Under the pieces are notes generated by a model, which was not told where the DNA came from, did no database searches, and saw only the letters and a program-made list of their open reading frames with translations. Of a stretch of DNA of 27,916 nucleotides, positions 17,598 to 21,783 are shown one piece after another. Source of the DNA: an uncultured Bdellovibrionales bacterium (GTDB lineage: Bacteria > Patescibacteriota > Minisyncoccia > Moranbacterales > UBA1568); contig CAZYOT010000003.1 of assembly GCA_964649305.1 (NCBI GenBank), forward strand, positions 1 through 27,916, in the 5' to 3' direction. A program made the translations under genes and the position numbers. Numbering within the stretch: position 1 is the first letter of the stretch; the number at the start of each line of letters is the position of its first letter.

Positions 17598-18293
17598 ATG
17601 AATCATACAGTAGATACTGCCGGCCTTGCTGCCACACTGGATATTACTATCACCAAGACAGAGCTTTATCATGAAGCTTTGACACATCGTTCATACCTCA
17701 ATGAGCATCGTGACTATGCCTATCCTCATAATGAGCGTCTCGAATTCCTTGGAGATGCCGTGTTGGAATTGGTTGTGACACGTCACTTGTTTGATACTCT
17801 CCCAAATCCAGAAGGGGAACTGACGAGTTTTCGCGCCGCGCTTGTGAATGGTGAGATGCTTTCCGTTATAGGTAAGGAACTAGGGATTGAAAAATTTCTT
17901 CTCATGAGTCGTGGTGAGGCCAAGGATACTGGTCGCGCACGTAGCTATCTTATCGCCAACGCCATGGAGGCTATCATCGGGGCAATTTATCTTGACCAGG
18001 GGTATGATGATGCCGGGCTGTTTATTGAGCGTCACATCCTTTCTCGTTTACCAGAAGTGATGGAGAAAGGACTCTACACCGATCCCAAAAGTCATTTTCA
18101 GGAGATGGCTCAGGAGAAAGCCGGTATTACACCAAGTTATGGTGTGCTTCGAGAATGGGGACCAGACCATGACCGTCATTTTGTAGCGGGAGTTTTTCTT
18201 GAGGAAGAACTGGTTGCTGAAGGCGAGGGTGCGAGCAAACAGGACGCCCAGCGAGCAGCCGCCAAGAAAGCTCTTGAAGCCAAGGGCTGGTAA
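17598..18293 (+). CDS. rnc: Ribonuclease III
   Basis: ALTHRSY, HNERLEFLGDAVLEL signature, ANAMEAIIGAIYLDQG, C-terminal dsRBD (DPKSHFQE...SKQDAQRAAA). Confidence 0.99.
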   Translation: MNHTVDTAGLAATLDITITKTELYHEALTHRSYLNEHRDYAYPHNERLEFLGDAVLELVVTRHLFDTLPNPEGELTSFRAALVNGEMLSVIGKELGIEKFLLMSRGEAKDTGRARSYLIANAMEAIIGAIYLDQGYDDAGLFIERHILSRLPEVMEKGLYTDPKSHFQEMAQEKAGITPSYGVLREWGPDHDRHFVAGVFLEEELVAEGEGASKQDAQRAAAKKALEAKGW

Positions 18294-18297
18294 TTGA

Positions 18298-18353
18298 TGA
18301 GGTTTTAGGTGATGGGTATTAGAGAAAATGTAAAATGAAAAGTTAAAAACAGT
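18298..18353 (+). repeat. Heptamer-period array in the rnc 3' UTR
   Basis: TGAGGTT TTAGGTG ATGGGTA TTAGAGA, then AAATGTA AAATGAA AAGTTAA AAACAGT, all in one 7-nt register. Confidence 0.6.
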
Positions 18354-18370
18354 CTCACAGCTGTTTTTTT
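18345..18370 (+). terminator. Terminator-like hairpin after rnc
   Basis: AAAAACAG-8nt-CTGTTTTT followed by TT. Confidence 0.55.
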
Positions 18371-18412
18371 AATTAGGTCTTGATTAAGCTGAAGGTTGTT
18401 TTTGAAGAGGTT

Positions 18413-18466
18413 CTTTTTAGAAAAAAGCTTGGTCTCTTCGTCTGACGAAGAGTTTTTTCTAAAAAG
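18413..18466. repeat. Compound palindrome, GTCNGAC core
   Basis: CTTTTTAGAAAAAA-gcttggt-CTCTTCGTC-T-GACGAAGAG-TTTTTTCTAAAAAG: perfect 14-bp outer and 9-bp inner inverted repeats. Confidence 0.9.
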
Positions 18467-18553
18467 TAGAGTGTAGTATTTCGCAGGAAAATACAAACGT
18501 CTCTGAAAAAATAATCTTTGGTTTAATTTTGAGAGTGAGTAATTTTAGGTAAC

Positions 18554-18590
18554 AAAAAACCGGTGAGGAGAGCAAATTCTCTCCTCCCGG
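18554..18590 (-). terminator. Intrinsic terminator of the minus-strand lipoprotein gene
   Basis: Minus strand CCGG-GAGGAGAG-6nt-CTCTCCTC-A-CCGG-TTTTTT. A second hairpin, CTCGGC/GCCGAG, lies at 18605-18620. Confidence 0.85.
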
Positions 18591-18624
18591 GTCTTGGGTA
18601 TTGTCTCGGCTGGTGCCGAGGGGG

Positions 18625-19140
18625 TTATTCTTCTTCGGCCGGCTCCGGCGCCAGTGCGTCGTGCATGTGCTCGAAGGCAGTAATTCTCTCAGAAAAGCTG
18701 GGTCCATAGTAGGCGGTTCCGGTTTGGGTGACGCCAGTAATGTACTTACTCCAACAGAGAGTAGCCTCATGTTCCTGGCTTATTTCGACAGTACAGAGAA
18801 GGTCTGACTTCGCCGTAACAGGCAAAATATTTGTCTTGACTCGCTCCCAGCCGGCATGGCTGAATATACCATCGACCATTCCTTGAAATTTATGGTCATT
18901 GATAGAGTAGCGAATAGATACCCATTTGGTAGTTCGATACTGAGGCACCCGTGGGTACAGACCATTGACCTTGATAGGCACGCGCTTCACGAAGTCCTGC
19001 TGGCAGGTGCCATCGGCATTGCACTTGACTTGCACGTATGAGGCCGAGTTTTTGTCGGATTGCGAGTCGGCCTTGGCGCAGCCCATGAGCAGGGTGGTGC
19101 CAGCCAGGACGGCGACGAAGAAGTGGTTGTTAAAGTTCAT
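18625..19140 (-). CDS. Hypothetical lipoprotein (171 aa)
   Basis: ATG 19140 with AGGAG 7 nt upstream. Hydrophobic leader ending in the lipobox LMG|C21, plus four more Cys. Confidence 0.75.
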   Translation of the reverse strand: MNFNNHFFVAVLAGTTLLMGCAKADSQSDKNSASYVQVKCNADGTCQQDFVKRVPIKVNGLYPRVPQYRTTKWVSIRYSINDHKFQGMVDGIFSHAGWERVKTNILPVTAKSDLLCTVEISQEHEATLCWSKYITGVTQTGTAYYGPSFSERITAFEHMHDALAPEPAEEE

Positions 19141-19208
19141 GATGGGTCTCCTGGGCTCGGAATTGAGCCTAAATTTTGCCAAAGCACCATTTAGGTACTT
19201 GACTATGT

Positions 19209-19237
19209 ATTATACGCCTATTTCTCTCTTTTGTCAA
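19209..19237 (-). promoter_or_regulatory. Perfect consensus sigma70 promoter for the lipoprotein gene
   Basis: Minus strand TTGACA(19237-32), 17-nt spacer, TATAAT(19214-09). Confidence 0.9.
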
Positions 19238-19284
19238 TGCTCTGTAGCCGAGAAACAAGCCTTGTGGCATAATGAATGTACATA

Positions 19285-19376
19285 AAAAGTAAAATATCAA
19301 AATTTAAAAAGTGTAAGAGATAAAGTTCGGTGCTTTACCGGTTTTTAATTTTGCAGTTTAATTTTTGCATTTTTGT
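19285..19376. repeat. Inverted pair of heptamer-period A-tract/T-tract arrays upstream of smc
   Basis: AAAAGTA AAATATC AAAATTT AAAAAGT, central TAAAG/CTTTA hairpin (19321-37), then TTTTTAA TTTTGCA GTTTAAT TTTTGCA TTTTTGT. Confidence 0.7.
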
Positions 19377-19377
19377 C

Positions 19378-21693
19378 GTGTATCTCAAGAAAGTTGAAAT
19401 TAACGGGTTCAAATCATTTGCCAACAAGACAGTGTTGGATTTTTCTGCCTATCCGGCAGACAAGTCGCCGACCCTGGACTCTGGCTCGAGTATTGCTCGT
19501 ACGATTACCGCTATCGTGGGTCCTAATGGCAGTGGTAAGTCCAATGTAGCTGATGCTATCCGTTGGGCGATTGGTGAGCAGTCGGTTAAGAATCTGCGTG
19601 GTAAGAAATCAGAAGATGTGATTTTTGCGGGTACTGACAAGAAGGCCCGTATGGGAAGTGCTTCGGTGACGCTTCATTTTGATAATAGTGATAAGCGTAT
19701 CCCGATTGAGTTTGGTGAAGTTTCTATTACTCGCAAAGTCTACCGTAGTGGTGAGAGCGAGTACCTGATCAATGGTTCTAAGGTCCGTCTTTTGGATATT
19801 ATCGACCTTCTTGCCAAAGCGGGTATCGGTAAGGATAGCTACTCAGTCATTACTCAGGGTATGAGTGATGCTACGCTTCAGGCCACACCGCTTGAGCGTA
19901 GGAGTATTTTTGAGGACGCTGCCGGAGTCAAGCAGTATCAGATAGAAAAAGAGCGTTCACAGAGGAAGCTTGTGAATACCGAAGAAAATCTCGCTCGTGT
20001 AGAAGCCTTGATACAGGAAATCGAGCCCCATCTCAAAGGTCTTAAGCGTCAGGCAGAGAAAGCCTCACAGGGGAAGGATGTAGCTTTGAGACTCTATGAA
20101 AAACAAGTCTTGCTTTACGGCTATCTTTGGAAGCAGTTTGAAAAAGAACGTAGCACTGTCTTGGTAGAGCGTGACACTTTGCAGAAGCGTGTATTTGAAT
20201 TGGAAGTCAGTACCAATACGCTTTCAGGTGAGATGACTGTCCTCCGAGAAGAACTTGAAGGTGAGCAAGAAGAAGTAGAGCTCGTGAAAACCCTTGATAC
20301 TCTCCGGGCTGAGCAGAATGACATCGAGCGTAAGCAGAGTGTGCTCCGCGGTAAGATGGAGATTGAGCGTGAACGTCAGAAAGAAGAGGAAGTGATTCGC
20401 ACTATCCCAGTGGATTTGCCGTATGTCCAAAAAGCCCTTGATGCAATTCGTGAGGCTCAAGGAGTACTCGTAAAAAGCATTGCTAAGTGCCAGAGTCTTG
20501 AAGAACTGGTGACGCTCAAGAAGCAAGCGGAAGCTATCCAAGAGCAATTGAGTGAGCTTAATACCAAGGCGAGTGAGGGGAGTGTCAAAGAAGTCCAGGT
20601 CATTCGTTTACCAGTGGCAGAAAAAGAGGCCAGTGATGCTCGTATCAAAGAGAGCGAAGATGAGCTCAAGGCTATGAGTGCTCGCTATGAAGTGGTCAAG
20701 AAGTCTATCAAAGACCTCGAAGAAAAAATCACTACCTCACGTGATGCTACCAAAGCCAAGCGAGACGCTTTTTTTGATAAAGAAAAAACTTGGCGTGAAA
20801 CCGAAATGGAGTTGGCTCGCAAAAAAGATGCTCTTAATGAAATCAAAGTACGTTTGGCTCGAGTGGAAGTGCGTGAAGAGGATTTGACCAAGCTTGTACA
20901 AGAAGAGTTAAACGTGGCTCCGACTACACTAACCTACAATGAGAACACGCCAGTAGAACGTGAACGCCTAGAGCGCGAGATTACGCGTCTCAAGGTAGAA
21001 GTGGAGCACATCGGGAGTATTGATCCAGAAGTGGTCCATGAGTACGAAGAAACTCAGGAGCGTTTTGACTTCCTTACGCGTGAGTCGGGTGATCTACGTC
21101 AGGCCATGGAGAGTTTGGTCACAGTGATTGCGGAAATGGACCAAAAAATTGAGCATGCTTTCAAGAAGGCTTTTCATGATATCCGTGAAAAATTTGCTGA
21201 GAACTTTAAGATTATATTTGGAGGAGGTAAGGCTGAGCTTTCGCTCGTAGCGGTCCAAAAAAGAAAGCGCAATGTCGATGCCGAGCTTGAGGGTGAAGCT
21301 GTGGACGAGGAAGTAGCTCTCGAAGAGTCTCAGTCTGGGATTGAAATCTATGCCTGCCCACCAGGTAAGAAAATTACCAACTTATCTATGCTTTCCGGTG
21401 GAGAACGTTCTCTGACGTCACTCGCCCTTCTTTTTGCCATTATTTCATACAATCCGCCACCATTTGCGGTCCTTGATGAAGTGGAAGCGGCTCTCGATGA
21501 GGCTAATTCACGCCGTTTTGGGAAGATGCTCGGAGAGCTTTCTCGAGAGACTCAGTTTATCGCCATTACTCATAATCGCGAGACTATGTCGCATGCCAGC
21601 CTCCTTTATGGCGTTACTATGGGAGCAGACGGTATTTCGCAGCTTCTTTCTGTCCATTTGGATGAAATAGAGAAAAAAGTGCTTAAGGCTTAA
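19378..21693 (+). CDS. smc: SMC-family ATPase, short (771 aa), no recognisable canonical hinge
   Basis: GTG start, YLKKVEINGFKSFA, Walker A GPNGSGKSN, Q-loop VITQG, FEDAAGV, signature LSGGERSL, Walker B/D-loop VLDEVEAALDEAN, THN. It lies in the rnc-smc-rpsP context. Confidence 0.93.
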   Translation: MYLKKVEINGFKSFANKTVLDFSAYPADKSPTLDSGSSIARTITAIVGPNGSGKSNVADAIRWAIGEQSVKNLRGKKSEDVIFAGTDKKARMGSASVTLHFDNSDKRIPIEFGEVSITRKVYRSGESEYLINGSKVRLLDIIDLLAKAGIGKDSYSVITQGMSDATLQATPLERRSIFEDAAGVKQYQIEKERSQRKLVNTEENLARVEALIQEIEPHLKGLKRQAEKASQGKDVALRLYEKQVLLYGYLWKQFEKERSTVLVERDTLQKRVFELEVSTNTLSGEMTVLREELEGEQEEVELVKTLDTLRAEQNDIERKQSVLRGKMEIERERQKEEEVIRTIPVDLPYVQKALDAIREAQGVLVKSIAKCQSLEELVTLKKQAEAIQEQLSELNTKASEGSVKEVQVIRLPVAEKEASDARIKESEDELKAMSARYEVVKKSIKDLEEKITTSRDATKAKRDAFFDKEKTWRETEMELARKKDALNEIKVRLARVEVREEDLTKLVQEELNVAPTTLTYNENTPVERERLEREITRLKVEVEHIGSIDPEVVHEYEETQERFDFLTRESGDLRQAMESLVTVIAEMDQKIEHAFKKAFHDIREKFAENFKIIFGGGKAELSLVAVQKRKRNVDAELEGEAVDEEVALEESQSGIEIYACPPGKKITNLSMLSGGERSLTSLALLFAIISYNPPPFAVLDEVEAALDEANSRRFGKMLGELSRETQFIAITHNRETMSHASLLYGVTMGADGISQLLSVHLDEIEKKVLKA
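19444..19464 (+). repeat. Short palindrome inside an SMC head loop insertion
   Basis: TCTGCC-TATCC-GGCAGA-CAAG, encoding SAYPADK within extra residues before the Walker A strand. Same arms and CAAG tail as the 21746-21783 element. Confidence 0.5.
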
Positions 21694-21745: not shown

Positions 21746-21783
21746 TCCGCCTTATGAAAGAATTAAGGCTACGGGCGGACAAG
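21746..21783 (+). repeat. Palindromic element in the rpsP 5' leader
   Basis: TCCGCC(21746-51)/GGCGGA(21774-79)-CAAG with an inner GCCTTA/TAAGGC hairpin. Confidence 0.65.

Follow-up and report, generated by a model that had tools for sequence, protein, structure and literature searches.

The window analysed here, a stretch of 27,916 nucleotides (nt) at the start of contig CAZYOT010000003.1 (GenBank assembly GCA_964649305.1), encodes on its forward strand an Smc protein of 771 amino acids (aa; 19378..21693, stop codon included) with a short tip where a hinge domain would be expected. The assembly, from a Moranbacteria (CPR/Patescibacteria) bacterium with a tiny genome, comprises 871,562 bp in 98 contigs and is rated 94% complete. 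The coding sequence is an open frame that starts with GTG. A longer alternative frame begins at the GTG at 19330; the GTG at 19378 is the aligned counterpart of the conserved start M-Y-L-K-K-[VL]-E-I-x-G-F-K-S-F of 60 related proteins, most of which begin with ATG.

In a Pfam scan, the protein matched SMC_N (E-value 8e-66) and generic ABC/AAA families, and it scored above the cut-off of TIGR02168, the NCBIfam equivalog model for bacterial Smc (660.8 and 567.35 bits, respectively). The genome search gave this match as two stretches, covering profile positions 1–389 and 857–1181 of 1181, while positions 390–856 remained unmatched. The closest solved structures were the heads of Bacillus subtilis Smc (5xg3 and 3zgx, E-value ~1e-113). 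The best fold match of the full-length AlphaFold2 (AF2) model was 5xei, which contains Smc head, coiled coil, and joint, and the template modelling scores (by target) to the 5xg3 and 5h68 heads were 0.89–0.91. No second strong SMC_N match was found in the whole genome. ScpA (PF02616, 1.5e-21; open reading frame (ORF) of 235 aa) adjoins ScpB (PF04079, 2.7e-40; ORF of 199 aa) on contig 40, and ParB is encoded on contig 4. Judged by these sequence comparisons, the 771-aa protein is the organism's only Smc and the ATPase of a canonical Smc-ScpAB condensin.

Head, arms, and tip of the protein

The N-terminal half of the ATPase head (residues 1–184; 19378..19929) contains Walker A (residues 48–55; 19519–19542) and a variable surface loop (residues 23–41), and the C-terminal half (residues 615–771; 21220..21690) contains the LSGGE signature (672–676), Walker B (696–701), and H732. 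Walker A, Q-loop, signature, Walker B, D-loop, and H-loop were all present, with G48–S55, Q160, S673–E676, D700–E701, and H732 being invariant in 24 order-level and 91 family-level sequences. An acidic, low-confidence insertion in the C-terminal head (residues ~625–650; 21250–21327) varied in length across the order and was missing in B. subtilis Smc.

The full-length AF2 model (91-sequence alignment) had a mean predicted local distance difference test (pLDDT) score of 83.1 and showed head elements up to residue 181, followed by a helix at 185–292, a short break at 293–296, and a helix at 297–332; together these helices make up the N-terminal arm strand (residues 185–332; 19930..20373). The C-terminal arm strand, including joint and neck (residues 414–614; 20617..21219), consisted of a helix at 414–511, a broken region at 512–550 that corresponds to the joint (20911–21027) and is matched in the 5xei fold, and a helix at 551–614 leading into the C-terminal head. 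The two strands were predicted to form an antiparallel intramolecular coiled coil with arms of about half the canonical length. A conserved block, G325-x-I-E-I-E-K-E332, stands immediately before the tip.

The tip begins with a predicted strand, β1 (residues 337–344), that runs into an I-P-V-D motif (residues 343–346; 20386..20415 for both), continues as a helical hairpin (helix 347–369, turn 370–373, helix 374–400; 20416..20577), and ends with a second predicted strand, β2 (residues 402–409; 20581..20604). A separate AF2 run on residues 298–448 (45-sequence alignment; pLDDT 86.7, nothing below 50) returned the identical strand-helix-helix-strand order at the same residues as the full-length run. 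Because the monomer offers each strand only the other as a partner, the tip can be read as a two-stranded β ribbon topped by a helical hairpin, and the models place this ~73-residue element, its hairpin clamped at the base by the ribbon, where the hinge would be. The a/d seams of the hairpin run through residues 347/350/354/357/361/364/368/371 and 377/380/384/387/391/394/398, and conserved hydrophobic positions also lie off the seam (349, i.e., Y349, and 365, 383, 386, and 392). In the order-level alignment, P344 and V345 were invariant and D346, Y349, V350, Q361, L364, and L394 were each at least 90% conserved. The mean pairwise identity (19 sequences below 80% identity) was 0.37 in the tip, 0.38 in the distal N-arm, 0.21 in the adjacent C-arm, and 0.66–0.72 in the heads. 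The ratio of nonsynonymous to synonymous substitution rates (dN/dS) was 0.03–0.18 in every region including the tip, where dS was estimable; dS exceeded 1 even for the nearest pair, and the ratio therefore indicates purifying selection only.

No Pfam match to SMC_hinge (PF06470) was obtained in the 771-aa protein even at E ≤ 1, or anywhere in the 94%-complete genome, and the NCBIfam scan of the protein likewise revealed no hidden hinge. A CxxC motif was absent from the protein, which has just two cysteines (C371 and another in the C-terminal head), and from residues 250–500 of 67 short representatives. Profile-profile alignment (hhalign) of the tip to hinge sequences taken from five SMCs of this phylum gave a probability of 0.06%. 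Searches with the tip profile against PDB sequences returned coiled-coil-like noise only, Foldseek of the tip model against the PDB returned nothing better than E 0.2, and an exhaustive VIA search reached Z ≤ 11.6 over ~76 residues of helical hairpin, which is within the noise range for helical models. Among the AFDB clusters, the tip model matched one unnamed 616-aa protein (32% identity), most likely of the same family, the rest being weak helical matches. In the ESM Atlas, the shape search yielded a Candidate Phyla Radiation (CPR) fragment and generic hairpins only, and the feature search gave scores ≤ 0.87 and no named family.

A sequence-only reading of this stretch had described complete SMC head motifs, arms at about residues 185–338 and 414–612, and an apex in which a helical segment lies between two beta-like motifs, with neither a hinge motif nor CxxC. 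The order- and family-level alignments bear out the head motifs, the AF2 helices at 185–332 and 414–614 the arms, both AF2 runs the apex with its boundaries, and the Pfam scan and the sequence itself the missing hinge and hook. The conservation that it asked of the VIR-x-(I/L)PV motifs holds for the first one: all 27 genomes from the order have [IVLM]-P-V-[DN] at the corresponding site. The second, QVIRLPV, occurs in the genus only; what most of the order retains on the β2 side is G401-x-V403-x-hydrophobic.

Conservation in the order and distribution in the phylum

Forty relatives from the same order were searched, namely 24 species of the genus and 16 genomes from 15 other genera and 11 other families. 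All 40 contained a Smc match, which, where the contig was complete, covered residues 1–765 at 45–93% identity. The open frames of the complete-contig orthologues were 761–826 aa long, the 27 extracted proteins had lengths of 758–792 aa, and PF06470 was found in none of the 41 genomes (the relatives and the genome itself). The aligned orthologues show that the short form with the I-P-V-D tip motif is conserved across the whole order.

These relatives bear on two other accounts of the gene. A 98-contig draft could harbour an assembly artefact, an internal deletion, or a pseudogene, in which case relatives might carry a full-length smc; the orthologue was, however, short in 40 of 40 relatives, the same length and layout without internal stops recurred in relatives from many separate assemblies, one of them in only 4 contigs (G023), and dN/dS was far below 1. 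Same-length relatives from independent assemblies and purifying selection thus refute this account, to which we attach practically no weight. Being short and hinge-less, the protein also resembles the repair-type SMC-like ATPases (RecN, SbcC/Rad50, or Sph-like), but the RecN model TIGR00634 gave 36.9 bits against a cut-off of 407.85, and the sbcC and Rad50 models gave 18.9 and 41.8 bits, both far under their cut-offs, compared with 660.8 bits for TIGR02168. Furthermore, CxxC is missing, the PDB matches favour Smc heads (1e-113) over Rad50 (1e-7), and the genome encodes ScpA and ScpB with this protein as its only strong SMC_N match. Membership in a repair-type family is therefore very improbable and, within the limits of sequence evidence, was rejected.

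Among 301 genomes drawn evenly from the phylum, 6 had a hinge above the Pfam cut-off, all from two families and with genome sizes of 0.9–1.2 Mb, and TIGR02168 found Smc in 121 (a tally that includes one unpublished genome, G193, on which none of the specific claims depends). Lack of the hinge is the norm for Smc across the phylum and not peculiar to this genome. The suggestion of the sequence-only reading that the design suits a small chromosome was not supported: within the phylum, genomes with a hinge fall in the same size range as those without, so that genome size does not explain the loss of the hinge. In 180 of the 301 genomes, many of them rated 100% complete and among them 7 of the 14 that belong to the class but not to the order, TIGR02168 gave no match at E ≤ 1e-10; many lineages of the phylum may have lost Smc altogether or carry one that is too divergent to be recognised.

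Open frames with a TIGR02168 match ranged from 366 aa (cut at contig ends) to 1105 aa, and complete extracted proteins from 609 to 1074 aa. Lengths were bimodal in the 150 best representatives of 50%-identity clusters, with 62 at 725–774 aa and 64 at 850–924 aa; proteins related to the query are over-represented in the sample, so little should be read into the class frequencies, on which the spacing described below does not depend. A hidden Markov model (HMM) of the hairpin (residues 347–400; domain E < 1e-3 in a small database of 217 proteins, consisting of cluster representatives, genome-derived sequences, and the order's own orthologues) matched 79 of the 217 Patescibacterial SMCs, in both main length classes and at sharply defined positions. 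The hairpin started 125–139 residues after the neck anchor (the P217 equivalent) in 56 proteins, 185–199 residues after it in 21, and 115–119 and 255–259 residues after it in one each. Distances from the hairpin to the C-side anchor (the G546 equivalent) clustered near 145 and 205, with one at 285, and the N-side and C-side distances were correlated with r = 0.99. A measure that does not use the hairpin HMM, the distance from anchor to anchor, was also multimodal in 216 proteins, with groups near 320, 450, and 575. Arm length therefore varies in parallel on the two strands, by increments of ~64 residues. The 771-aa Smc, with distances of 130 and 146 and an anchor-to-anchor distance of 329, belongs to the shortest main class. 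Hinges started 132–136 residues after the P217 anchor in 871–888-aa SMCs and 200 residues after it in 1006–1021-aa SMCs; since hairpin (~130) and hinge (132–136) begin at a matching arm coordinate, the two are alternative tips on the same arm classes.

Proposed working and alternative readings

The 771-aa protein shares with B. subtilis-type Smc-ScpAB the head motifs, neck, joint, the ScpA, ScpB, and ParB partners, an upstream rnc gene, and a score above the equivalog cut-off, whereas it differs in lacking PF06470, in carrying the 73-aa tip in the hinge's place, and in the acidic head insertion. Its N-terminal arm strand measures ~148–162 aa (~162 from head to hairpin), compared with 344 aa in B. 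subtilis (PMC5344682). We consider it probable that the protein works as a canonical Smc-ScpAB ATPase with half-length arms, in which the tip supplies the dimer contact in place of the hinge. Two Smc molecules would still pair, with ScpA closing the dimer at the heads, and the second, permanent contact between them would come from the tip, with two hairpins possibly packing as a four-helix bundle, the strands joining into a shared sheet, or both. The conserved off-seam hydrophobic positions would fit such hairpin-hairpin packing. The complex would then entrap DNA and move along it as Smc-ScpAB does elsewhere. B. subtilis Smc stays functional when its hinge is replaced by the zinc hook of Rad50 (PMC5344682), so an unrelated tip dimeriser can suffice. 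Of the miniature condensin with a non-hinge tip that the sequence-only reading put forward, TIGR02168, the orthologues, and the ScpA and ScpB genes uphold the real, conserved mini Smc of an Smc-ScpAB system; the tip's part in it is the proposal weighed here.

Several observations weigh against a dimerising tip. In the full-length model, pLDDT fell below 50 at residues 335–341 and 405–412, i.e., in both strands. Conservation is no higher in the tip than in the distal N-arm, the dN of the tip exceeds that of the arms within the window's own subclade, and the extra hydrophobic positions of the hairpin could merely pack against the strands. The genes scpA, scpB, and parB, for which the sequence-only reading proposed to look, are all encoded, the first two as neighbours; its companion site was not found, no canonical parS (TGTTNCACGTGAAACA) occurring within two mismatches in the 94%-complete genome even though ParB is present.

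The tip might instead be a structural cap only, the complex being held together by ScpA bridging, ATP-dependent head engagement, and side-by-side arms, or containing a single Smc per kleisin. The mostly single a/d seam of the hairpin, like that of an intramolecular two-helix coiled coil, would suit a cap, as would the conservation level just mentioned and the wide variation of tip sequences among Patescibacterial lineages, where the hairpin HMM matches 56 of 189 targets. A simple cap, however, needs no such constraint as that on the I-P-V-D motif and the exposed hydrophobics, which are conserved in the order down to 45% identity, and the tip is located exactly where relatives have a hinge. Moreover, to our knowledge, all characterised SMC-family proteins have a tip dimeriser, be it a hinge, a hook, or a RecN-type interface. 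We therefore regard the cap as unlikely, albeit the strongest competitor of the dimerising tip. Were the tip a degenerate, cryptic hinge remnant and not a replacement, this would explain why it occupies the hinge's position and combines strands with helices, as a hinge does. This reading is nevertheless quite improbable in view of the profile-profile probability of 0.06% against Patescibacterial hinges, the lack of a Pfam hinge at E ≤ 1, a length of ~73 aa, which is less than half that of a hinge (roughly 160 aa), and fold searches that return generic helical hairpins only. Going beyond the dimer contact that we favour, the tip could be a self-sufficient minimal dimerisation module at the hinge's fixed arm position; we hold this wider claim tentatively, at rather less than even chances. 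Smc-ScpAB would then work in nearly the whole phylum without the DNA-binding and gate functions proposed for the hinge, on arms quantised at ~64 residues per strand.

Discrete arm lengths and non-hinge tips have precedents. B. subtilis Smc works only at particular arm lengths, with a reported period of 91 aa, compared with the ~64 residues per strand found here, and natural arms show modes at 238, 341, and 515 aa and a possible minor one at 163 aa (PMC5344682). Because that survey located the hinge by alignment, hinge-less proteins would have escaped it. The engineered mini-Smc and zinc-hook chimeras of B. subtilis (Burmann et al. 2017, PMC5344682) likewise have short arms and a non-hinge tip, with which they remain functional, and discrete permitted arm lengths, but they are laboratory-made and carry a zinc hook, whereas the 771-aa Smc is natural and has no cysteine hook. 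A 'hinge-less' SMC clade from ocean metagenomes, branching with Actinobacteria (Sussfeld et al. 2025, PMC12153180), also combines natural SMC-type heads and a coiled coil with the absence of hinge and CxxC; by description, it differs in its Actinobacteria branch and undescribed partners, the protein studied here being the resident Smc of a Patescibacterial genome with ScpAB. The zinc hook of Rad50/SbcC and the tip of RecN are comparable as small non-hinge elements at the fold-back, where they mediate dimerisation, but the 771-aa Smc has no CxxC, no sequence or fold match to them, and Smc-type heads.

In the literature searched, we found no description of a hinge-less Smc in CPR/Patescibacteria. 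New here are the order-specific, strand-clamped hairpin with its invariant I-P-V-D, its occurrence in the main length classes, and the finding that hairpins and hinges start at corresponding points along the quantised arms. The hinge counts as a defining and functionally important SMC domain, required for dimerisation and DNA binding and perhaps acting as a DNA gate. That a Smc-ScpAB with half-length arms and a 73-aa tip occurs naturally and is conserved shows that nature can dispense with the hinge fold itself, and the order-wide absence of this fold is a test case, provided by nature, for the function of the hinge. The discrete length classes provide a second, independent data set on the constraint on SMC arm length, and the 771-aa Smc, 235-aa ScpA, and 199-aa ScpB would form a compact complex for structural work.

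Neighbouring genes and minor sequence features

In the window, smc is preceded by nusB, rnc, and a 1.08-kb stretch and followed by rpsP, rplJ, and rplL, in this order. The upstream neighbour rnc (RNase III; 17598..18293, forward strand) matched Pfam Ribonucleas_3_3 (1.2e-37) and dsrm, and rnc-smc is a conserved gene order, as in rnc-smc-ftsY of B. subtilis. The intervening stretch (18294–19377) contains ORFs without a Pfam match and, like the window as a whole, gave no Rfam match. Its last ~250 nt were ~80% identical to the sequence upstream of smc in one congener (L011), whereas the closest relative (L009) showed no match to the stretch.

A 21-nt palindrome with a CAAG tail (TCTGCC-TATCC-GGCAGA-CAAG; 19444–19464) lies within smc and adds 7 aa (SAYPADK) to the variable head loop; it is missing from the 93%-identical orthologue of L009. 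A second palindrome between smc and rpsP (21746–21783) has the same arms, with one compensatory change, and the same tail, and a joint pattern of the two matched only these two sites in the genome. The close relatives include metagenome-assembled genomes (MAGs) labelled Candidatus Moranbacteria/Moraniibacteriota (Patescibacteria group), and many others were deposited as 'uncultured Bdellovibrionales bacterium' (third party annotation, TPA). The Smc proteins of the latter are 60–93% identical to those of the Moranbacteria MAGs, and the Bdellovibrionales label therefore looks wrong.

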